DNA of 64,000 bases from Patescibacteria group bacterium (GCA_035288465.1 DATEAH010000007.1:2090-66089); one strand, 5' to 3'. Positions 3,002 to 53,410 are shown, counted from the stretch's first letter. The notes: generated by a model from the sequence alone, not told the origin. Program-made: numbers and translations.

Positions 3002-3751
3002 TTAGTACGATTTGATAATATCTCGATAAATTTGATAGGCTTTTTCGCCGCGCCAATTTGAGGGGAGGAATTGTTTGGGGAGTTGGGGATCGTCCCGATA
3101 AATTTGCGCAAACTCCATTTCTAAAAAATTGGCCACTAAGGGCCAAAATTTTCCTCTTTTCGTGCGATGGACGTGCTTGATAAATTGTTGGTATTGAGCG
3201 TTAATTTCGTTGAGTTTCCAGATTTTTTGAATGGTGCTTTTTTCCCGGTCAATTCGATCTGCTTCCGCCAGAGTCATGTATTGCCTGATGCCGAGCTCAT
3301 TGGAAAGGCGGTTGATGGCGCCCAGGAGCGGATGGGGGGAGATATAGACGCCTTTTTGGATTTTTTTGAAGCTCATTTCCGCTAATTTTTTTTGAAGCTC
3401 AAGTCGGTAGGGGCGTTCTTTTTCCGGAAGGCTAAATATCACCATTCGCCATTTGCCGTCCCAGGGATCAAATTTTCGAAATGGTAGTCTGGGCAAAATT
3501 CTGAGCCGACCGCGATTGGTGAGGCTGGGAATTTTATGATGATAACGATGGGTAGTGGTGATTAAGCCCCGTTTTTTAAGAATAGACAATTCTTTCTGAA
3601 GCGTGGCCAAGGAATATGTAGTTTTATAAAAGCGACGAAAAATTTGCTGCAATTGAGAATAAGAGAGCGTGTAATTGATCTCGGGCAGGCAATAGTTAAT
3701 AAAAATCAATAATTTTTCTTGTAAACTGAGATGCTGTTTTATTCTGACCAT
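3002..3751 (-). CDS. PaaX-like winged-helix transcriptional regulator (tentative)
   Basis: 249-aa ORF; N-terminal wHTH-like region; central W-DGKW-MVIFSLPE motif resembling the PaaX family. Confidence 0.4.
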   Translation of the reverse strand: MVRIKQHLSLQEKLLIFINYCLPEINYTLSYSQLQQIFRRFYKTTYSLATLQKELSILKKRGLITTTHRYHHKIPSLTNRGRLRILPRLPFRKFDPWDGKWRMVIFSLPEKERPYRLELQKKLAEMSFKKIQKGVYISPHPLLGAINRLSNELGIRQYMTLAEADRIDREKSTIQKIWKLNEINAQYQQFIKHVHRTKRGKFWPLVANFLEMEFAQIYRDDPQLPKQFLPSNWRGEKAYQIYRDIIKSY

Positions 3752-5590: not shown

Positions 5591-5804
5591 GTTCAATGCG
5601 ACATTCTCGCTTTTTTTTGTTATTCATGATATATTATCATACTCTTTTTTATTTTTATCGTCAAGTTTTTGGTATGATTTAAGAATAATTTTATGAAGTC
5701 AGGGGTATTAATTATTGACTTTTTTCTTATTTTAGTGTAATATTTTATGTGACTAAGGAGCTTGTTCCTTAAGCTCTTTAACAACTCAAAAGGAGATGGT
5801 CAGG

Positions 5805-6797
5805 ATGAGAAAGTCGTTGTTGTCAATCGCGATTTTTCTTTTCTTTCTTCGTGTGGGTTTTGCTCAGATTGGACCCGAGGCTCCAATTCTTGGCAAGAGC
5901 GTATTAGGTCTCAACGGAATAGCTGTTTTGGAAGTAGCTTCTCCTTCTGAATATTCATACAATCCTGCCGCTGTTCCTTTGGCGCTGAAAATATTTAATG
6001 AAGAAAAGTATGCTGAAATTGATTACGGTTTGATCAATTTTGCGAAAGGTCCGACCGTAGAAAATACTTGGCAGTATTGTTCTTTTCGAACAAGTCAGGA
6101 TTCAGCCATGCGTGTAGCTCGATATACCATTAAATCAAATTCAAAACCAATTATATATCTTGGACCAGACCTTCTAGTAAAGTTTGAAGGAGAGACATAC
6201 GAAGTTACTTATGGAAAGATGTTTTCGGAAAAAGTGGGCTTTGGCGTAGCCGTCGTCCCTTACGAAAACATTAAAACCAAACTTTCAGCTGATAACATAC
6301 AGCTTGGTGTAGGTGAAGCCAAATCGGATCTGCACTTTAGAGTTGGTGGGATATATCTTATCCAATCGAATCTGAGTGTGGGAGTCGTCTTTACTAAAGA
6401 CAAAATAAACGCTTCAACCCTTCTTTCTCCGCTTCTTTCAGGATCGTCCGAGCCAATTAATTTAAATGCCGATTATAATGAGAAGTTGTGGACAGTTGGT
6501 GTGGCTTGGCAGCCAAAGCAAGGTACGGGGCTATACTCCACTTGGCAAAAGGGGGATATTACAGGTCCAAACCTTCATGAGGATATTGATCTTAAAGCTT
6601 TTGGACTCCAGCAATTTTTGAGTCCAAAACTATGTATTAGGGTTGGTCTTTATGATACTGTTCCTGGATATCAAGTTACCTATTATGGTGATAAATGGAA
6701 TATTGGTGTTTCTTTTTCAAATAATACATACCGTCGGAGTGAAGCTTTTCTCGGATCGGCGGATACCTTTTATATTTGGGCTGGTGGGAGTTTCTGA
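5805..6797 (+). CDS. Secreted hypothetical protein with beta-strand-rich, OMP-like C-terminus (ends GGSF)
   Basis: RBS AAGGAG 9 nt upstream of ATG at 5805; signal peptide; alternating hydrophobic pattern; terminal aromatic residue. Confidence 0.55.
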   Translation: MRKSLLSIAIFLFFLRVGFAQIGPEAPILGKSVLGLNGIAVLEVASPSEYSYNPAAVPLALKIFNEEKYAEIDYGLINFAKGPTVENTWQYCSFRTSQDSAMRVARYTIKSNSKPIIYLGPDLLVKFEGETYEVTYGKMFSEKVGFGVAVVPYENIKTKLSADNIQLGVGEAKSDLHFRVGGIYLIQSNLSVGVVFTKDKINASTLLSPLLSGSSEPINLNADYNEKLWTVGVAWQPKQGTGLYSTWQKGDITGPNLHEDIDLKAFGLQQFLSPKLCIRVGLYDTVPGYQVTYYGDKWNIGVSFSNNTYRRSEAFLGSADTFYIWAGGSF

Positions 6798-6836: not shown

Positions 6837-7118
6837 ATGTATGAAGAAACGAGCCGAATAGTCGTAGTCTTAACAAGTATCATTATTACGATCGGGTTAT
6901 ATTCACAAGGTATTAAGATTTGGAAAACTCGTAGCGCTAAGGATTTTTCCTTTATGCTAATAGTAGCTTTGTTCCTTGACTGGATGAGTTGGTATAACTA
7001 TGGTTTCATGTTACACGAATGGCCAATAATTCTAATTGGATCACTAAGTTTTCCTGGAGTTGTATTGGTCTGTTCCGGCTACATCAAGTACCGAGGGGGC
7101 GAAAATAATGTGGAGTGA
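6837..7118 (+). CDS. SemiSWEET / PQ-loop family transporter (3-TM, 93 aa)
   Basis: Aligns along its length with bacterial SemiSWEETs: YSQGIKIWKTRSAKDFS against LPQVLRVVMTKQTRDIS, and WYNYGFMLHEWPIILIGSL against WFVYGILRSDLPIILANVV. Confidence 0.7.
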   Translation: MYEETSRIVVVLTSIIITIGLYSQGIKIWKTRSAKDFSFMLIVALFLDWMSWYNYGFMLHEWPIILIGSLSFPGVVLVCSGYIKYRGGENNVE

Positions 7119-7911
7119 TTTCTACGCGGAGCTGGTTAACAGGAACATTGGCGTAATTACAGTGGATGAGCAAGATATGTTAAGAAATTCTTGTATTGCA
7201 GTTGCTGGTTGTGGTGGAATGGGAGGTTATTCTGCCGAACAATTAGTACGTTTAGGCGTTGGTCACATTAAAATTGCTGATTTTGATAATTTCGAGGTTC
7301 ACAATATCAGCCGTCAGGCAGGATCAAGTTTTATTACTGTGGGTCAACCCAAAACCCTAGTTCTATCTTCTTATTTTAAGCAGATAAATCCTGAACTTCA
7401 TCTTGAGTCATTTCCTGAAGGGGTTCAGCCTGAAAACGCGGCTGAGTTTGTCAGGGATGCTGATATTGTTATCGATGCGATTGACTACACTTGTTTGTAC
7501 AACTCGGTCGTTTTGCATCGTGAGGCGCGCAAGCAAGGTTTGTGCTTGATTAACCCTCAGGCAATTGCTTTTGGGGTGAGTGTTTTGGTTTTTGGACCAG
7601 GGACCCAAACCCTTGAGGAATACGTTGGTTTGCCCGAAGGTGCTACCAGAGAAGAAATTGAAAAGTTTATACCACCGATTGAAAAATTTTGTCCTTATTT
7701 CCCAAGTTATATAGACAAAAATATCGCCATGAAAGCAGCGACTGGGCAAATTAATATTCCTAATATTATTATGCCCCAATGTTTGGGAACAGCGATAGCT
7801 GTTTCTGAAGCTACGATGATGATTTTGGGAAGAATTCCTCAACCTCAAGGGCCAAATCCAAGAATTTTCATCTTGGATCTCCAAGACAGGTTTTTCAAAT
7901 GCATAGAGTGA
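7108..7911 (+). CDS. ThiF/MoeB/HesA-family E1-like adenylyltransferase
   Basis: VAGCGGMGGYSAEQLVRLGVGHIKIADFDNFEVHNISRQ (GxGxxG nucleotide fold, NxSRQ). Start at ATG 7108 after GAGGGGG, chosen over 7060. Confidence 0.8.
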   Translation: MWSDFYAELVNRNIGVITVDEQDMLRNSCIAVAGCGGMGGYSAEQLVRLGVGHIKIADFDNFEVHNISRQAGSSFITVGQPKTLVLSSYFKQINPELHLESFPEGVQPENAAEFVRDADIVIDAIDYTCLYNSVVLHREARKQGLCLINPQAIAFGVSVLVFGPGTQTLEEYVGLPEGATREEIEKFIPPIEKFCPYFPSYIDKNIAMKAATGQINIPNIIMPQCLGTAIAVSEATMMILGRIPQPQGPNPRIFILDLQDRFFKCIE

Positions 7912-7929
7912 CAAAGGAGGTGGGACGGA

Positions 7930-8541
7930 ATGCTCGAGTTCCGGCAGGCTAATGGTAGGGATGAATTGATGAAAGTTTTTAAATTGCGGTATCAGGTTTA
8001 TTGTCTCGAGAAGTGTTTTTTGCCATCATCGGATTACCCTGAGGGTGTTGAAGTTGACGAATTTGATACGGCGTCTGTTCATTTTGTCGCAATGCATACC
8101 GTTGATGGTCAGGAATTGGTTGGAACAATGCGTTTAATACTTGATTCGGACAATGGTTTTCCGGTTGAGAAGCATTTCAGGCTAACTAAACCCATTACAA
8201 ACCGACAAACAACGATCGAACTTTCTCGGTTGATTGTTGCTCCATCGGCAAGGATAATTGCTATTCCTATTTTGATGGGTTTAGCTCGTGAGATTTATTG
8301 GTATTGCAATGATCATCAGATTGAGGATTGCTATGCAGTTTTAGAGGAGCCGTTGCTTAAGATGCTGAAGAGGATTAGATTTCCTTTCCATGTGGCTGGT
8401 AAGGAACAGTGGTATATGGGTGGTCTAACCCGACCAGCATATTTATCGGTTTCTGAAACGGTGAGAGTAATGGTTCGTAGTAATGCTATATTTAGAGAGT
8501 ATCTTACTGAGTCAAAGGGCAATCCCATGATTCTTAGTTAG
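7930..8541 (+). CDS. GNAT-superfamily N-acyltransferase of the LuxI / N-acyl amino acid synthase-like type (Acetyltransf_5-like)
   Basis: FKLRYQVYCLEKCF...DEFD..SVHFVAMH..DGQELVGTMRL pattern typical of autoinducer-synthase-like N-acyl synthases. Confidence 0.55.
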   Translation: MLEFRQANGRDELMKVFKLRYQVYCLEKCFLPSSDYPEGVEVDEFDTASVHFVAMHTVDGQELVGTMRLILDSDNGFPVEKHFRLTKPITNRQTTIELSRLIVAPSARIIAIPILMGLAREIYWYCNDHQIEDCYAVLEEPLLKMLKRIRFPFHVAGKEQWYMGGLTRPAYLSVSETVRVMVRSNAIFREYLTESKGNPMILS

Positions 8542-8582
8542 CGGGGCGACTAGCTTCACAAGCGAGTTTCCCCGTTTTTTTA
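8541..8582 (+). terminator. Rho-independent terminator
   Basis: gcgggg...ccccg hairpin followed by TTTTTTTATTTTT. Confidence 0.6.
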
Positions 8583-8623
8583 TTTTTACAAATATTGTAT
8601 AATTAATTTAGATAAGGGGGTAA

Positions 8624-10441
8624 ATGAGCTATTCAACAATTATTTTGTTATTTATGGTGATATTAAATGTTGGTTTGGCAACGATTGTTTTATTTAATAA
8701 TCTTAAAAATCGGCTAAATCAAATTTTTGCCTTTTTTATTTTGTTTGTAGTTTTATGGACAATAAGTAATTATTTTGCTAATTTCTACGGTCCTTATTCT
8801 TTATTTTGGACACAAATGACGTTTGCAAGTGCGGTATTGGTCGCATTTACCTTAGTTTATTTTTCATATTATTTTCCAAAATCAGAAAGAAAAATCTCTA
8901 ATAAAGAACACCTTATAATTACAATCCCAACAATTTTAATTTTGTTGTTATTATTATTCACAAAAACAGTAATTGCCGGTATTACTATTATTGAAACCGG
9001 GACTGGTGTTGAACAGGGAATATTGTATTATATTTGGCCTGTCTATTTTTTGTTATTTATTATTTTTACATTTTATAACTTGATTAAAAAATACCGGAAT
9101 CTTAATAAAAAGCAACAAATTCAAATGAGAATACTTTTTGTGGGTTTATTATTGAGTTTGTTATTAGCCATTACCACAAATTTACTTTTTCCCTTAATCT
9201 TAAAAAACGATACCTTAAGCAATTATGGTCCATATTCTACTTTTATAATCATTGGGTTTACAACTTATGCAATTATCAAACATGAGTTATTAAATATTCG
9301 AGTAATAGCGACTGAAACCTTGGTAGCATTAATAATATTAGCCTTGATTGTTCAAACTTTATTATCAAAATCGTGGGCTGAGGGATTGATTCGGACAGGA
9401 TTTTTATTGCTTGTCGCTTATTTTGGTTATTTGCTTATTCGGTCGGTTATTCAAGAAATTGAGCGACGAAAAGAGGTGGAGAAACTATCTCGGGAATTAG
9501 AAAAGGCCAATCTTCATCTGCAGGAATTAGATAAACTTAAATCTGAATTCGTCTCGATTGCCAGCCACGATTTATTAACCCCAGTCGCTGCGATCGAAGG
9601 CTATCTGTCGATGATTTTAGATGAAAAATTAATCAAACTCAAAAATCCGAAATTAGAAGATTATTTACACCGCGTTTACGATTCGGCCAAGCGTTTGACC
9701 CGCTTAATTACAGATTTATTAAATATTTCAAGAATCGAAGAAGGCCGCCTGAGATCAGAAAAACAACCCATTGATATTAATGAAACGATTAAGAGCGTGA
9801 TTAAGGAATTATCTATCCAAGCGGATAAATATCATTTGTATTTACGATTTGATGAGCCAAAAGAAAAACCAAAACCAATTTACGCCGACGAAGATCAACT
9901 CAAAGAAATCTTAATAAATTTAATCGGTAATAGCTTGAAGTTTACCAGAAGTGGTGGGGTAACCATTTCGCTTGAAACTCTTTCGACTCATGAAATTGAG
10001 TCAAGGGTCGCAAAACTCGAAGAGACGGCTTTATCGCAAGCCAGCAAACAAGGCGAGATGTTGCCGATGATGGTGGGAACAAAAAGCCGAGTGATGTTAG
10101 GTGATGAGCAATTAGTAATCCACGTCAAAGATACTGGCGTTGGAATTGCTGAAGACGAATTGCCAGGACTTTTTCAAAAATTTTACCGTGGCCGCACTCT
10201 TTGGACAGTGAAAAAAACTCCGGGTACTGGTTTAGGATTATATATTTCAAAATCATTAGTGGAAATGCACAATGGTCGAATCTGGGTAAATGAATCTCGA
10301 AGGGATAATGGTTCTGATTTTGCCTTTAGCGTCCCATTTGTCAAAGACTCAATTATTGTCGGACATCACGAAAAGAAGTTGACTCTTGAAGAGGAAGCAA
10401 AGCTAAAACCTTTGGCGAAGGGACCAACCAGGGATTTTTAA
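8624..10441 (+). CDS. Sensor histidine kinase with a multi-TM N-terminal sensor domain (HisKA + HATPase_c)
   Basis: About 7 N-terminal TM helices; H-box SIASHDLLTPV; G-box GTGLGLYISKSLVEMHNGRIW. Confidence 0.85.
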   Translation: MSYSTIILLFMVILNVGLATIVLFNNLKNRLNQIFAFFILFVVLWTISNYFANFYGPYSLFWTQMTFASAVLVAFTLVYFSYYFPKSERKISNKEHLIITIPTILILLLLLFTKTVIAGITIIETGTGVEQGILYYIWPVYFLLFIIFTFYNLIKKYRNLNKKQQIQMRILFVGLLLSLLLAITTNLLFPLILKNDTLSNYGPYSTFIIIGFTTYAIIKHELLNIRVIATETLVALIILALIVQTLLSKSWAEGLIRTGFLLLVAYFGYLLIRSVIQEIERRKEVEKLSRELEKANLHLQELDKLKSEFVSIASHDLLTPVAAIEGYLSMILDEKLIKLKNPKLEDYLHRVYDSAKRLTRLITDLLNISRIEEGRLRSEKQPIDINETIKSVIKELSIQADKYHLYLRFDEPKEKPKPIYADEDQLKEILINLIGNSLKFTRSGGVTISLETLSTHEIESRVAKLEETALSQASKQGEMLPMMVGTKSRVMLGDEQLVIHVKDTGVGIAEDELPGLFQKFYRGRTLWTVKKTPGTGLGLYISKSLVEMHNGRIWVNESRRDNGSDFAFSVPFVKDSIIVGHHEKKLTLEEEAKLKPLAKGPTRDF

Positions 10442-10489: not shown

Positions 10490-10897
10490 ATGGTAGAAGC
10501 AAAAGCAACAATTTTAATCGCTGAAGATGATTTAACCCTAAGAGACATGTATCAAATTCGCTTGGAAGCGGGCGGTTATCGAGTTTTGGTGGCAGCAAAT
10601 GGTGAGGAAGCCTTGCAAGTTTTGGAAAAAGAAAAGCCAGATGTAATTTTGCTTGATATTATGATGCCAAAAATTAATGGCTTAGATGTCTTGGAAAAAG
10701 TAAAAACTAACCCAGCTACCAAAGCGACCCCAGTTATTATTTTAACGGTCTTAATCCAAGATCAGACTCGTGTTAAGGGATTGATGTCAGGCGCGGATGA
10801 TTATTTGATTAAATCCGAAACCATGCCTGGCGAAGTCATTAAAAAAATTGAAGAAGTCTTGGCGAGAAACCAAAAAAATAAAACCGAAGAGAAATAA
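10490..10897 (+). CDS. Stand-alone response regulator receiver (CheY-like, no output domain)
   Basis: ILIAEDD...DVILLDIMMPKINGLDVL...LTVL; 135 aa. Confidence 0.85.
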   Translation: MVEAKATILIAEDDLTLRDMYQIRLEAGGYRVLVAANGEEALQVLEKEKPDVILLDIMMPKINGLDVLEKVKTNPATKATPVIILTVLIQDQTRVKGLMSGADDYLIKSETMPGEVIKKIEEVLARNQKNKTEEK

Positions 10898-18590: not shown

Positions 18591-21023
18591 TTATTCTCGA
18601 GTCACTCTCCAAACTTCTTCAACAGTGGTAATACCATCAAGCGCTTTTAAAATCCCATCTTGTTTCATGGTGATCATACCTTCGGAAATCGCTTTGGTGG
18701 CTAATTCTTGGGAGGAAACTTTTTTCAAGATTAAATTTCTCATCGGTTCAGTTAAAGCAAAGACTTCAAAAATTCCAACCCGTCCTTTATAGCCGATATT
18801 ATTGCACGCTGTGCAACCTTTGCCTTTATAAAAGACCATCTCGCGATTATCAAGCTCCTTTTTTTCTTTCTCGGGGAGCTTGGCTAATTCTTGTTTAATT
18901 TCAGTAAGAATTTCATCGGCAATAGGTTCTTTTTGTTTGCAATGTTCGCAGACTTTACGAGTTAATCGTTGAGCCACAACAGTATTAACCGAAGAAGTGA
19001 CTAAAAATGGTTCAACGCCCATATCAATCATACGAGGCACCGCTCCAGCGGCGTCATTAGTATGAAGAGTTGAGAGCACCACGTGGCCAGTTAAAGCCGC
19101 ATGGACAGCCATTTCGGCGGTTTCGAGATCGCGAATTTCACCAACCATAATAATATCCGGATCTTGTCTGACAATTGAACGTAAGCCTTTCGCAAAAGTA
19201 AAACCGATGTCAGTCCGCACCTGACCTTGGTTAATACCCTTAATCTGATATTCAACCGGGTCTTCAAGGGTAATAATATTAACACCTTCTTTGTTTAATT
19301 TGCCTAAGACGGCATATAAAGTAGTGCTTTTACCAGAACCGGTCGGTCCAGTCACTAAAATCATCCCATGTGATTTACTAATGGCATCGTTTAAACGGGA
19401 GAAAGCTTCGCCACGAAAACCCAATTCCTCTAAAGTTAACACGCCACCCGATTTATCTAAAATACGCATGACCGCCTTTTCGCCATAAACAGTGGGAAAA
19501 ACACTTAACCTAAAATCAATTTTACGTTTATTAACCGTGAGTCCAAAACGACCGTCTTGCGGAAGTCGAGTTTCGTCAATTTTTAAATTTCCTAAGATTT
19601 TAATACGAGAAATAACGGCTGGTTGTATCGATTTTGGCAAGGAAACTACCTCTTGAAGCACGCCATCAATTCTAAATCTAACGATGACTTCTTTTTCATA
19701 AGGTTCAATATGAATATCTGAAGCTTCGGATAAGACGGCGCGTTTGAGAATTGATTGGACGGCTCGTGAAGTTGGTGCTTCAGCTTTGGCAATATCTTCT
19801 TCTTGGTCTTCTTTTGTTTTAGTTTCTTTCTCTGGAGTCGCTTTTTTAATTTCTTGAGCTATTTCAGATTCAAATTCTGAATATTGTTCCAAAACATGAC
19901 CAATATCTTCTTGGGTCGCTAAGGCTGGTTTGATTTCTGCACCGGTTTTTTTCTTGATAAATTCGATGGCTTGATAATCTTCGGGATCAACCATAGCGAC
20001 GATTAATTTGCCATTTTTTTCTTCAACCGGAATCGCTTGATAAAGCCTGGCGATATATTCTGGAATTTTGGCTAAAATTTCTTTGGGAATTTTATGGCTT
20101 CGAAGATCAACATAGCTAATATCATTTTTTGGTTTTGCAGTTTCGGATAAAGTCGCGGTAATTTCCTTGCGGGCGTTTTTAAAAACATTGGCTTGATTAG
20201 GGTTTTGAGCTGCAAGATTGTTGGGGTTAGGAGCGGTTTTTGCAGCTGGATTTGTTGGAACTGGAGTTAAAGTTGTGGGCTCTTTTTTGGGACCAGCAAT
20301 TGGAGCGGTTTTTACAGGTTCTATTGGTTTTTCAGATTTTGTTGGGGTTGGTTTTTCTGAAGCATCAAGGGTGGGAGAAGAGGTCCTGGAAGCTGATTTT
20401 TTGCCAAATAAAAAACCGAAAAAGGATTTTTTAGTGGACGGAGTTGGCGAAGGAGCAACTGGTTTAGACTCAGGTTTAGGCGAAGGGGTAGGAATAGTAG
20501 TGCTTGGACTATCAGGGGTAGGTTTTATTTTTGTACCATAATTAATTTGTGAACCAGATTTGAGAAATGATGAAGAAGGTTGATTTTGTGGGGTAGTTTT
20601 TGCTGCCAGAGAAGCGGGCGCAGAGGTAGTGTGGCTAGAAATTTTTTCAATAGGTTCAGTTTTGGCGGGTCTTTGGATTGGAATAATTTGTTCACCAGAA
20701 ATAGGTGCCAACTCTGGTTCAGTTTTAGCAGCTTGCGTTTTGGGTTCAGTATAATCTTTGCCAATCGATTTTTTGAGCGTATAGCTGGTATTAAATGAAG
20801 GTTTCTTTTTATTTGCCGTAGGCTGGGGGTTTTGTTGGGGATCGATGTTTTTATTAGAGATCGCACTCGGCGAGAAAGCCCCCAAATTAGAAATTAAAAC
20901 TTTATTGCCTTGTGCTAATTGCGAGGTCACGACATTAATAAAAGTTCTTACGAATAATTCCGTTTTTTTCACAGGTAAATTTGAATTTGTCGCTAATAAT
21001 CTCACAAATTCTTTTCTGAGCAT
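18591..21023 (-). CDS. pilB: Type IV pilus extension ATPase PilB/GspE carrying a truncated HU-like N-terminal module and a ~270-aa Pro/Thr/Ser-rich linker
   Basis: C-terminus has GSPII_E_N, Walker A GPTGSGKSTTL and the CxxC...CxxC zinc motif. Residues 1-55 (LPVKKTELFVRTFINVVTSQLAQGNKVLISNLGAFS) align with the HU gene in this window (AKASNLNRGEVLKLLNEFSHTLAQTLAKGEKVSLSGFGTFS). Strong RBS AAAGGAGGG upstream of ATG 21023. Confidence 0.85.
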   Translation of the reverse strand: MLRKEFVRLLATNSNLPVKKTELFVRTFINVVTSQLAQGNKVLISNLGAFSPSAISNKNIDPQQNPQPTANKKKPSFNTSYTLKKSIGKDYTEPKTQAAKTEPELAPISGEQIIPIQRPAKTEPIEKISSHTTSAPASLAAKTTPQNQPSSSFLKSGSQINYGTKIKPTPDSPSTTIPTPSPKPESKPVAPSPTPSTKKSFFGFLFGKKSASRTSSPTLDASEKPTPTKSEKPIEPVKTAPIAGPKKEPTTLTPVPTNPAAKTAPNPNNLAAQNPNQANVFKNARKEITATLSETAKPKNDISYVDLRSHKIPKEILAKIPEYIARLYQAIPVEEKNGKLIVAMVDPEDYQAIEFIKKKTGAEIKPALATQEDIGHVLEQYSEFESEIAQEIKKATPEKETKTKEDQEEDIAKAEAPTSRAVQSILKRAVLSEASDIHIEPYEKEVIVRFRIDGVLQEVVSLPKSIQPAVISRIKILGNLKIDETRLPQDGRFGLTVNKRKIDFRLSVFPTVYGEKAVMRILDKSGGVLTLEELGFRGEAFSRLNDAISKSHGMILVTGPTGSGKSTTLYAVLGKLNKEGVNIITLEDPVEYQIKGINQGQVRTDIGFTFAKGLRSIVRQDPDIIMVGEIRDLETAEMAVHAALTGHVVLSTLHTNDAAGAVPRMIDMGVEPFLVTSSVNTVVAQRLTRKVCEHCKQKEPIADEILTEIKQELAKLPEKEKKELDNREMVFYKGKGCTACNNIGYKGRVGIFEVFALTEPMRNLILKKVSSQELATKAISEGMITMKQDGILKALDGITTVEEVWRVTRE

Positions 21024-44245: not shown

Positions 44246-44322
44246 GCCGCCATCGTCTAGAGGCCTAGGATACCAGGTTTTCATCCTGGAGATCACCGGT
44301 TCGAATCCGGTTGGCGGTGCCA
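44246..44322 (+). tRNA. tRNA-Glu (anticodon TTC), CCA encoded
   Basis: GCCGCCA..TCGTCTAGAGGCCTAGGATACC..TTTTCAT..GGTTCGAATCC..TGGCGGT G CCA; D-arm near-identical to E. coli tRNA-Glu. Confidence 0.9.
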
Positions 44323-52390: not shown

Positions 52391-52462
52391 GCCCCCGTAG
52401 TTCAACGGATAGAACAAGGGACTCCTAAGCCCTAAATAGAAGTTCGACTCTTCTCGGGGGCG
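52391..52462 (+). tRNA. tRNA-Arg (anticodon CCT)
   Basis: GCCCCCG/CGGGGGC acceptor; D-stem GTTC/GAAC; anticodon loop CTCCTAA; T-arm AGAAG-TTCGACT-CTTCT; no encoded CCA. Confidence 0.8.
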
Positions 52463-52474
52463 CAATATTTTTTT

Positions 52475-52546
52475 CGGAGCGTGGCCTAGCGGTAAGGCGC
52501 AGCCTTCGGGAGGCTGAGATCGTGAGTTCGAATCTCACCGCTCCGA
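52475..52546 (+). tRNA. tRNA-Pro (anticodon CGG), C1:G72 as in bacterial tRNA-Pro
   Basis: CGGAGCG/CGCTCCG acceptor; anticodon arm CAGCC-TTCGGGA-GGCTG; T-arm GTGAG-TTCGAAT-CTCAC. Confidence 0.8.
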
Positions 52547-53335
52547 TTATTATTCAGCGCGTCCCGCCAACGGCGGGGAGGCCGTCCCGCCAGGGCGGGA
52601 CCAGCCCGATATTAAAAAAACCTCCTTTTTTGAGAGATTTTTTTAATTATAAAAATTTCTGGTCCCGCATAATCAAAGCACACGGGATAAATGGAGGTGC
52701 CGGAAGTTGCATCCGGGTCCAAAAGTTTTAAAAAATATCTTCTACAAGTTTATTCCAGATAAGTACTTAGGTAATCAGCTTAAATCTGGACTAAAAACTG
52801 AAAACCGCAATCTTTTATTAGCTTAGGTTCGGTAAAAAAGATGATTACCAAACTGCATCCGAAATTATGACACCAGATTTGCAACTTTCGGAAAGCTGCA
52901 AGAGGCGCCCCGTCAAAGGCGGGGATGACAATAGCGGTTAGGCTACTGCCATTTGTAAAGCAGGTTTGTTGCTTGTTTTTTTCTAGTTTTGATTGGGCTA
53001 GAAACCAAACTTGCGACATTTTTCGCAGTCTTTTGTCGAGGCTTGTCACCCCCTTATGGCGTTGGTAGACTGATACGCTACCGACCTCAGACCATTTTCT
53101 TTTTCGGAAAGAAAAAGTCTGACAAAAAGAAAACTTATTCGAAATTCCTATCGTGGCAGAATCATGGAAAGGTTGTTTAACTTTCATGGTCTGATTTACT
53201 GTCATTTTTCTGATCTTAAATCCGAATTTTTAAAGTTCTATCTTAATTTTACCACAAATTTTAATTTTGTCAAGACTGGTGGGCGGTATCCCAATGGTCA
53301 TCGGGATGACCTTCTGCACATTCATTTGATATAAA

Positions 53336-53410
53336 TGGTGCGCGCGGTAGGACTTGGACCTACGACCTTCTCTACGTCAAAGAGACGCTCTACCCCTGAG
53401 CTACGCGCGC
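53336..53410 (-). tRNA. tRNA-Val (anticodon GAC), CCA encoded
   Basis: Reverse complement GCGCGCG TA GCTCAGGGGTAGAGC G TCTCT-TTGACGT-AGAGA ... CGCGCGC A CCA. Confidence 0.8.

Follow-up and report, generated by a model that had tools for sequence, protein, structure and literature searches.

The window analysed here, a 64,000-nucleotide stretch of a Patescibacteria genome (GCA_035288465.1, DATEAH010000007.1:2090-66089), contains a compact group of genes for a small transporter-like membrane protein, an E1-like adenylating enzyme of the ThiF family and an N-acyl amino acid synthase (NAS), followed immediately by a two-component system; all are on the plus strand. (Comparison loci are designated below by L-numbers and comparison proteins by P-numbers.) The SemiSWEET-like gene (6837-7118; PF03083) encodes a three-helix membrane protein of 93 residues, and the ThiF gene (7108-7911; PF00899 and the PRK08223/PRK14851/PRK14852 group of models) a protein of 267 residues, which an earlier interpretation made without database searches (referred to here as the sequence-only reading) had put at 268. 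The third gene (7930-8541; TIGR03694, PF21926 and PF13444) encodes the NAS, a FeeM/LuxI-like GNAT of 203 residues. An intrinsic terminator at 8540-8583, formed by a hairpin at 8540-8576 and a subsequent run of seven U residues, closes the three-gene unit, and beyond it lie genes for a 605-residue seven-transmembrane (7TM) sensor histidine kinase (8624-10441), identified by matches to PF16927 (HisKA_7TM), PF00512 (HisKA) and PF02518 (HATPase_c), and for a stand-alone CheY-like receiver of 135 residues (10490-10897; PF00072, 4e-26). The remainder of the window is occupied by housekeeping and type IV pilus genes.

The organization of the first three genes supports a single SemiSWEET-ThiF-NAS transcription unit. 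The SemiSWEET and ThiF genes overlap by 11 nt, the ThiF start being the ATG at 7108, which is preceded by a ribosome-binding site and agrees with the N-termini of 35 homologues; a gap of 18 nt then separates the ThiF stop from the NAS gene, which starts at the 19th nucleotide. The terminator hairpin has a folding energy of -20 kcal/mol (z = -4.25), with 0 of 200 shuffled sequences folding as well; a simple pattern scan for terminators failed to pick it up and folding analysis did so. The tight packing, the overlap, the spacing and the terminator had all been described in the sequence-only reading and stand as described, as does its account of a multi-transmembrane sensor histidine kinase and a stand-alone receiver downstream. 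The spacer between the NAS and kinase genes is 82 nt long in the window and includes a TATAAT box at 8598-8603, read from the sequence. The genes are considered real because the same locus is present, identical, on at least 24 contigs out of several samples, and because approximately 100 ThiF homologues share 46-70% identity. Neither a second ThiF nor a second NAS gene was found in a search of the whole window.

The NAS and ThiF enzymes and their linkage

The product of the third gene matches TIGR03694 ("PEP-CTERM/exosortase system-associated acyltransferase") with 122.8 bits, above the cut-off of 111.95, in two stretches, the window protein being without an internal insertion. It also matches PF21926 (FeeM; 62.9 bits, 4e-17) and PF13444 (Acetyltransf_5; 52.1 bits, 1e-13), and its score of 23.4 bits to PF00765 (Autoind_synth) lies just short of the gathering score of 24. 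Residues R20, E27, E41, D43, D46, H51, R68, E97, S99 and R100 are invariant; the core set among them (R20, E41, D43, D46, R68, E97, S99 and R100, compared in 13 homologues) presumably corresponds to the conserved residues of LuxI-type enzymes, and the closest solved relatives by sequence are acyl-homoserine lactone (AHL) synthases (6wn0, 2e-9, family profile). On these matches the GNAT is an N-acyl amino acid synthase/LuxI-like enzyme and not a generic acetyltransferase, in agreement with the Acetyltransf_5 and LuxI-related assignment of the sequence-only reading.

Elsewhere, several metagenomic loci pair TIGR03694 members with a PRK08223-type ThiF, PEP-CTERM proteins and two-component genes. 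PEP-CTERM-type genes do flank distant NAS homologues at loci L073, L077, L078, L087, L118 and L119, and no PEP-CTERM, exosortase or pepcterm_CAAX genes are present among the annotated or scanned neighbours in the window. The two-component genes in such contexts have soluble kinases, whereas the window kinase is of the 7TM membrane type. We note that at three loci (L077 3101-6501, L078 4150-8075 and L059 6756-9124) the NAS is flanked by a pepcterm_CAAX protease-like gene (TIGR03008), a soluble PAS-type kinase and a sigma-54 NtrC-type regulator; the kinase and regulator resemble PrsK and PrsR, under their cut-offs, and represent another recurrent pairing of an NAS with two-component genes.

The ThiF-like protein matches PF00899 with E = 1e-33, and its AlphaFold2 model (pLDDT 94.7) has the complete ThiF/MoeB fold, with TM values of 0.73-0.76 to solved structures. 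Its top solved-structure matches, by sequence and by fold, are TcdA and the ThiF/MoeB activases, with which it shares a Rossmann-type E1 fold and carboxylate adenylation; TcdA likewise cyclises an N-carbamoyl-amino acid moiety. Unlike these enzymes of primary metabolism, it has no Zn-binding CxxC pairs and no ThiS/MoaD partner, its C-terminal half differs, and its partners are NAS and nitroreductase proteins. The curated cut-offs of the corresponding models are missed widely, with 62 bits against 304 for TcdA, 64-73 against 266-376 for MoeB and 76-89 against 152-275 for ThiF, and no open reading frame (ORF) ending in GG, as expected of ubiquitin-like or ThiS/MoaD-like carriers, occurs anywhere in the window. 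Orthology with TcdA, MoeB or ThiF was rejected on the strength of these scores and of the missing carrier-protein gene; the sequence-only reading had called for a comparison with TcdA, and its observations that the protein lacks both a rhodanese domain and a ubiquitin-like, MoaD or ThiS partner proved correct.

A closer parallel is offered by a recently described type of lipid pathway. As in OxzA/OxzB (Pseudoalteromonas rubra), TyzA/TyzB/TyzC, and TrzA/TrzS (Mycobacterium tuberculosis), the window has a FeeM/LuxI-fold NAS adjoining a ThiF-family gene. In those systems amino acids are N-acylated by OxzA, TyzA and TrzA, the resulting N-acyl amino acid is cyclised to an oxazolone in an ATP-dependent step by TyzB or by the ThiF domain of OxzB or TrzS (reviewed in PMC12596934), and the ThiF domains of the latter two proteins are fused to a nitroreductase-family oxidase that desaturates the product (PMC10404671, PMC12856293, bioRxiv 10.1101/2020.06.11.147165). 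Related clusters produce N-acyl dehydrotyrosines (PMC12479983). A TrzS variant with an inactive oxidase still yields the saturated cyclised intermediate (PMC12856293), and the ThiF step is therefore independent of the oxidase and a ThiF-only step is chemically feasible.

The window ThiF resembles these enzymes in having intact adenylation residues and in finding its best models among the stand-alone and nitroreductase-fused forms of the clade. The pattern G34-x-G36-G37-x-G39-G40 and residues D58, D60, N66, R69, Q70, K82, D123 and D126 are invariant in 35 homologues, and the adenylation motif aligns with that of TcdA; in the alignment the adenylation site is intact. D126 lies within the conserved adenylation motif at the place of Asp217 in TrzS, and the TrzS substitution D217A abolishes cyclisation (PMC12856293). 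The best NCBIfam models are PRK08223 (169 bits), PRK14851 (132 bits) and PRK14852 (99 bits), all of them "hypothetical" models, two of which can be given an identity: PRK14851 aligns end to end with the ThiF-nitroreductase protein P0176 (749 bits), which has the OxzB/TrzS architecture, and PRK08223 is passed by a stand-alone ThiF at L118 (423 bits against a cut-off of 266) that adjoins two NAS genes, a PEP-CTERM protein gene and a nitroreductase gene. Over its full length the window ThiF is 34% identical to the ThiF domain of a ThiF-nitroreductase fusion of the OxzB architecture. Placed through models, fusions and architecture, it probably falls in the clade of ATP-dependent N-acyl-oxazolone cyclases.

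Gene fusions and shared neighbourhoods tie the two enzymes together. A Rosetta-stone search was performed with the ThiF-family profile against 1.84e9 representative proteins, and the best 146 matches were inspected; these include at least 10 NAS-ThiF fusions and 19 fusions of ThiF with nitroreductase in one order or the other, together with PilZ-NAS-ThiF (P0206), ThiF-methyltransferase (P0150), ThiF-glycosyltransferase (P0185) and ThiF-ThiF (P0141) proteins. Within a single fusion, P0151, the window ThiF matches the C-terminal half (35% identity, full length) and the window NAS the N-terminal half (29% identity), which constitutes a Rosetta-stone link between both; overall, the window proteins are about 30-35% identical to fusion-type relatives. 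An adjoining ThiF of the window's family is also present at 13 of 80 metagenomic loci that were selected solely for carrying a distant NAS. (The metagenomic NAS scan used a generic pattern and yielded, among the matches listed, distant relatives of 27-43% identity only; close relatives were fetched singly.) We conclude that the NAS and ThiF very probably act in one pathway. Separately, the 680-residue P0206 joins a cyclic di-GMP-binding PilZ domain to the NAS-ThiF pair and hints at second-messenger control of lipid synthesis.

The enzyme pair thus appears to belong to the N-acyl-oxazolone type of pathway, and so is not categorically new. The module around it differs from OxzAB, TyzABC and TrzAS in several respects, however: no nitroreductase-family flavin oxidase is present, either fused or within the 64 kb; ThiF shares translational coupling with the gene of a small transporter-like protein; a gene for a FadL-like beta-barrel lies upstream and a 7TM sensor kinase is kept immediately downstream; and the host belongs to the Patescibacteria and not to the Pseudomonadota, Actinomycetota or Planctomycetota. 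What is new is accordingly the lack of an oxidase, the coupled transporter-like gene, a host in the candidate phyla radiation (CPR), and the conserved place beside an orphan 7TM sensor. The absence of an oxidase means that a stable conjugated oxazolone is not expected from the window operon.

Conservation of the module, its membrane proteins and the adjacent sensor kinase

ThiF-NAS pairs occur in eight distinct Patescibacteria lineages (the window, L005, L135, L137, L138, L139, L141 and L142), with 15-31 nt between the two genes and with ThiF proteins 64-72% and NAS proteins 38-56% identical to those of the window; the linkage that the sequence-only reading had proposed to look for in related genomes is therefore kept. 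The upstream membrane gene is a SemiSWEET in five of the eight lineages, a membrane protein of 153-156 residues in L138 and L139, and neither of these in L142. An orthologous 7TM kinase gene (45-52% identity) follows 61-90 nt after the NAS in L135, L137, L138 and L142, which together with the window makes five of seven informative lineages, L139 having been left out of this count where its contig ends. The most divergent setting is that of L142 (1541-10270), in which ThiF, NAS and the 7TM kinase are found without a SemiSWEET; the genes on either side encode a regulator of the XRE type, a DNA methyltransferase of the D12 class, a coupling protein resembling TraG/TrwB and a serine recombinase. 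As these surroundings are all different, the ThiF, NAS and kinase genes evidently stay together when their context changes, and the flanking genes suggest that the module may travel on a mobile element.

A neighbor-joining tree of the ThiF proteins, drawn without bootstrap, places those of the NAS-linked Patescibacteria in one clade inside a family of stand-alone, mostly Omnitrophota proteins, with the ThiFs of the NAS fusion, L022 and L129 as next relatives. Clustering of the neighbours of the Omnitrophota orthologues revealed no conserved partner gene, their contexts being variable. We note that the closest orthologue from outside the CPR (64% identity; L006/L010 7297-8807, Omnitrophota) lies 2 nt 3' of a Flavodoxin_2/FMN_red gene, resembling NAD(P)H:quinone oxidoreductases, and has no NAS nearby.

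The small membrane protein resembles the bacterial SemiSWEET sugar transporters in being a three-helix PQ-loop protein of about 90 residues. It matches PF03083 (MtN3_slv) with 31.2 bits, above the gathering score of 23.7, and NF037968, the NCBIfam SemiSWEET model, with 41 bits, under the cut-off of 80; among solved structures, the Thermodesulfovibrio SemiSWEET 4rng is closest to it (E 3e-9). It differs from the solved SemiSWEETs, in all five orthologues, by a Gly in place of the pocket Asn, which has a functional role in the solved proteins, and by S/A-Q in place of P-Q; the Trp of the pocket pair is kept. The overlap with ThiF is 4-11 nt in five lineages, indicating translational coupling. 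In L138 (368-829) and L139 (616-1086) the SemiSWEET position is filled by the unrelated 153-156-residue protein, with a VTT/DedA Pfam match in L138, which the L139 protein resembles. The loss of the pocket Asn and the displacement by a DedA/VTT-like protein argue that the substrate is tied to the product of the pathway and is not a sugar, and we propose that the small membrane protein exports or flips the product, or else brings in a precursor.

Upstream of the trio, and also on the plus strand, a gene at 5796-6797 encodes a secreted protein of 333 residues without any Pfam or NCBIfam match and with 4 homologues only among 5.8e9 proteins. AlphaFold2 predicts a 14-stranded barrel with N-terminal helices and a plug-like segment (pLDDT 83.1, pTM 0.79), and FadL, TodX and CymD, which are channels for hydrophobic compounds, account for all of the top 21 Foldseek matches of this model in the PDB (E 3e-10 to 2e-8, TMq 0.51-0.62). 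As the underlying alignment consists of only four sequences, the model is to be treated as a lead. In L135 and L137 an orthologue immediately precedes the trio, in L005 one is located about 4 kb upstream of it, and the FadL-like protein is possibly an accessory part of the module. A transmembrane-type barrel is surprising in a Patescibacteria genome, presumed to be without an outer membrane; the predicted barrel might function within some outer layer, or else in the membrane of a host. The upstream genes listed in the sequence-only reading, for a YkuD L,D-transpeptidase, a secreted beta-rich protein and an M48-CHAP protein, are present as claimed.

The 7TM region of the downstream kinase gave no match to PrsK (TIGR02916), and no reported ligand for HisKA_7TM was found in the literature. 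The receiver has no output domain and is likely the phospho-acceptor of the kinase; at L047 an orthologous kinase-receiver pair adjoins pilO/N/M with the same synteny as in the window.

The 7TM domain recurs beside related ThiF operons in other lineages with different outputs. At L129 (771-5519) the gene order is ThiF, a methyltransferase-NAS fusion and a 7TM-GAF-GGDEF protein, the 7TM domain of which matches that of the window kinase (hhalign 95.9%, E 5e-9, 268 columns; HMM 3e-13). Methyltransferase-NAS fusions of 414-456 residues occur at this locus after ThiF, at L122 (4203-8040) and at L115 (626-1996), and in L129 and L122 the 7TM-GAF-GGDEF protein is encoded one or two genes 3' of the fusion, which suggests a cyclic di-GMP output for the same sensor domain. 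In the Elusimicrobia loci L144/L145 (4030-11485) a sigma-54 regulator lies upstream of genes for a ketoacyl synthase, a membrane methyltransferase (PEMT/ICMT-like), a ThiF 38% identical to that of the window, a B12-binding radical SAM protein, a 7TM-GAF-kinase (L144 7TM domain match 2.7e-18), an HD protein and ScmC/PqqD/radical-SAM proteins; this operon appears to represent another, as yet uncharacterised pathway of lipid type that includes a ThiF and shares the type of receptor. At L022, a ThiF and a GNAT-like gene are followed by a truncated ORF of the same 7TM domain.

Two other Patescibacteria loci, L047 (4176-9495) and L054 (5632-11057), have a ThiF of a different type directly 5' of the orthologous 7TM kinase gene. 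These proteins have about 380 residues, including an N-terminal extension of about 100, and a PDB sequence search with them gave weak TcdA-like matches or none. The ThiF of L047 is preceded by a 504-residue protein with a weak AMP-binding_C_2 match, and the kinase, receiver and pilO/N/M genes come after it; the ThiF of L054 is followed by a nitroreductase-type gene and a gene for a 372-residue protein.

A gene for the synthase of a hydrophobic small molecule next to one for a polytopic membrane histidine kinase without a periplasmic domain is also the arrangement of LuxM-LuxN and CqsA-CqsS of Vibrio and LqsA-LqsS of Legionella, which are autoinducer synthase/membrane sensor kinase gene pairs. 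Neither the synthase nor the sensor domain of the window is homologous to theirs, and the window kinase is not a hybrid. By analogy, such a layout would be expected for a membrane-partitioning signal and its receptor. That the product of the ThiF-NAS operon, or its effect on the membrane, is sensed by the 7TM kinase is a tentative proposal, to which we give somewhat less than an even chance.

Among the neighbouring genes, a PaaX-like regulator with PaaX_M and PaaX_C domains is encoded a few kilobases upstream of the module in two lineages, on the minus strand in both (window 3002-3751, L005 4513-5259). PaaX-type repressors of other bacteria respond to acyl-CoA ligands, and a regulatory link to the module is conceivable. 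At 18591-21023 on the minus strand of the window there is a gene for an ATPase of the PilB/T2SSE type (810 residues) that carries an MshEN domain and, at its N-terminus, an HU-like Bac_DNA_binding domain, an unusual fusion of pilus ATPase and DNA-binding domains. An Rfam scan of the window detected neither a riboswitch nor any other RNA element close to the operon, and the only families to reach their gathering scores were a tmRNA (52689-53053, minus strand; within 52391-53410) and four tRNA genes (44246-44319 among them), distant from the operon.

A proposed lipid pathway and its alternatives

The explanation of the whole that we favour, with modest confidence, is that the operon makes an N-acyl amino acid-derived lipid and moves it across the membrane, and that the neighbouring two-component system is its dedicated sensor. 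The NAS would pass a fatty acyl group from an acyl-thioester (acyl-CoA or acyl-acyl carrier protein) to the alpha-amino group of an amino acid. By comparison with its homologues, the ThiF enzyme would adenylate this N-acyl amino acid at its free carboxylate, at the expense of ATP, and attack by the amide oxygen would give a 5(4H)-oxazolone (azlactone). As there is no flavin oxidase partner, the ring would remain saturated and reactive, and could double as an activated acyl-aminoacyl donor. The SemiSWEET-like protein, or the DedA/VTT-like protein of sister lineages, would carry the amphiphile or a precursor across the membrane, and the FadL-like barrel may give passage across an outer layer to the amphiphile or to fatty acids coming in. 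In the membrane, the lipid would be sensed by the kinase through its 7TM domain, leading to phosphorylation of the CheY-like receiver, the gene for which adjoins the type IV pilus cluster. A compact small-molecule module with an N-acyl signal near a two-component system had been suggested in the sequence-only reading and is what the evidence favours; that the product would act as a signal for the kinase is argued from gene context.

A number of observations weigh against this explanation. Patescibacteria generally lack fatty-acid synthesis, and neither an acyl carrier protein-like ORF nor an acyl-CoA ligase gene is present in the window to account for the acyl donor. The window ThiF scores under the curated cut-offs of PRK08223 (169 against 266 bits), PRK14851 and PRK14852, with divergence over the C-terminal 75 residues. 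No NAS lies within 6 kb of its closest relatives (53-65% identity, mostly Omnitrophota), whose neighbours vary, and the ThiF subfamily can therefore work without a neighbouring NAS or on another substrate. A hidden Markov model built from the oxidase domains of the 19 nitroreductase fusions had no match in any frame of the 64-kb window; the same model detects the oxidase in L118, L054 and L021 and gives a weak partial match in L057, and no nitroreductase-type oxidase was called in the eight Patescibacteria loci. Every characterised oxazolone pathway has an oxidase, and a saturated azlactone is hydrolytically labile, so that the end product may differ. With regard to the sensor, a terminator sits between the trio and the kinase gene, in L005 the kinase gene lies at a distance of 4 kb, in L141 none is present within 8 kb, and the receiver is missing after the kinase in L005 and L142. 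The Patescibacteria lineages are, moreover, akin, and part of the gene order may be inherited synteny and not the result of selection.

The most serious alternative, which we regard as rather unlikely, is that the product is a structural lipoamino acid or aminolipid of the envelope, comparable to the OlsB-type ornithine lipids, in a host that scavenges lipids, and is not a signal. The ThiF would then activate the N-acyl amino acid for another head group or an envelope amine, the SemiSWEET/DedA-like protein would flip the lipid, and the 7TM kinase would monitor the state of the envelope or its lipids and be a neighbour for regulation only. OlsB is among the proteins included in PF13444, and the NAS gives weak secondary matches to the OlsB models of NCBIfam (1e-4). 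DedA/VTT proteins are associated with lipid flipping, and one of this type replaces the SemiSWEET in L138. The FadL-like barrel, L,D-transpeptidase and M48-CHAP hydrolase encoded upstream have envelope functions, and the terminator separating the trio from the kinase also fits this alternative, as does the recovery of mycobacterial oxazolones mostly in cell pellets (PMC10404671, PMC12856293). However, no second acyltransferase (OlsA-like) or head-group transferase is found in the module in any of the eight lineages, and the presence of the same 7TM domain beside related ThiF operons with three outputs in unrelated lineages is more easily explained by ligand sensing. A different product is also conceivable, though improbable, if a nucleophile other than the amide oxygen captures the activated N-acyl amino acid, either a side chain, such that N-acyl-homoserine would give an acyl-homoserine lactone independently of S-adenosylmethionine and Lys or Orn a lactam, or an amine of a protein or of peptidoglycan, resulting in lipidation. 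ThiF-family enzymes use many nucleophiles after adenylation (reviewed in PMC12596934), and MccB makes a succinimide from a C-terminal Asn; moreover, the missing oxidase removes the step that stabilises an oxazolone, the NAS has AHL synthases as its closest solved relatives, and several NAS-ThiF loci adjoin PEP-CTERM proteins. Such a route has no precedent in this ThiF clade, though, the characterised members of which all cyclise to oxazolones (PMC10404671, PMC12856293), and the sequence indicates no amino-acid specificity.

The remaining explanations are both very improbable. [quoted passage not shown] MccB and PaaA are indeed among the structural neighbours of the ThiF model, but the ThiF domain begins at about residue 10 of 267 in the window protein and at about 110-127 in MccB and PaaA, leaving no room for an N-terminal clamp or RiPP recognition element domain of about 100 residues; nor is there a conserved short ORF in or beside the operon that could encode a precursor, the GNAT is of the FeeM/TIGR03694 type and not of the RimI/MccE type, and the domains to which members of this family are fused are of the NAS and nitroreductase kinds. 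The analogy was rejected for want of a clamp domain and a precursor ORF and in view of the FeeM-type GNAT. It is equally hard to credit that the genes are chance neighbours, with a ThiF that serves housekeeping as a sulfur-carrier activase or tRNA ct6A dehydratase, an acetyltransferase of a generic kind and a SemiSWEET for sugars, as might be suggested by the Omnitrophota ThiF orthologues that stand alone in variable contexts. The wide failure of the TcdA, MoeB and ThiF models, the lack of a ThiS/MoaD gene, the translational coupling, the gene order kept across eight lineages and the dozens of NAS-ThiF fusions all speak against it, and the conserved linkage and fusions refute it.

Implications for Patescibacteria and for possible lipid sensing

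The module is real and is not ordinary housekeeping. In its most far-reaching form, which we consider doubtful, the favoured explanation describes a self-contained lipid-signal circuit of the CPR, made up of an NAS and an oxidase-less ThiF cyclase, a dedicated small exporter, a FadL-like conduit and a cognate receptor, with HisKA_7TM serving as a receptor for such lipids beyond the CPR too. If so, the two enzymes would yield a short-lived azlactone of an N-acyl amino acid, or else some related lipoamino acid in activated form. CPR bacteria would then have a first signal system for cell-cell or host sensing, and oxazolone/N-acyl-amino-acid lipids a first receptor and physiological role; in other phyla, related ThiF operons would have beside them the 7TM domain connected to GGDEF or GAF-kinase outputs. 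It is this tie across phyla between the 7TM sensor domain and ThiF-type lipid operons that we regard as the most interesting and most testable outcome of the analysis.

The conserved arrangement of synthase, proposed exporter and sensor ties a poorly understood class of lipids to the HisKA_7TM domain, so that both become testable, and does so in a form pared to five or six genes in a minimal genome. For enzymology, a ThiF-NAS pair that lacks the oxidase may point to a natural way of making saturated azlactones, or other compounds arising from carboxylate activation. For the biology of the CPR, the module would represent a rare specialised-metabolite pathway together with a possible circuit for cell-cell or host sensing, located beside type IV pilus genes, in organisms that are presumed to be scavengers of lipids.

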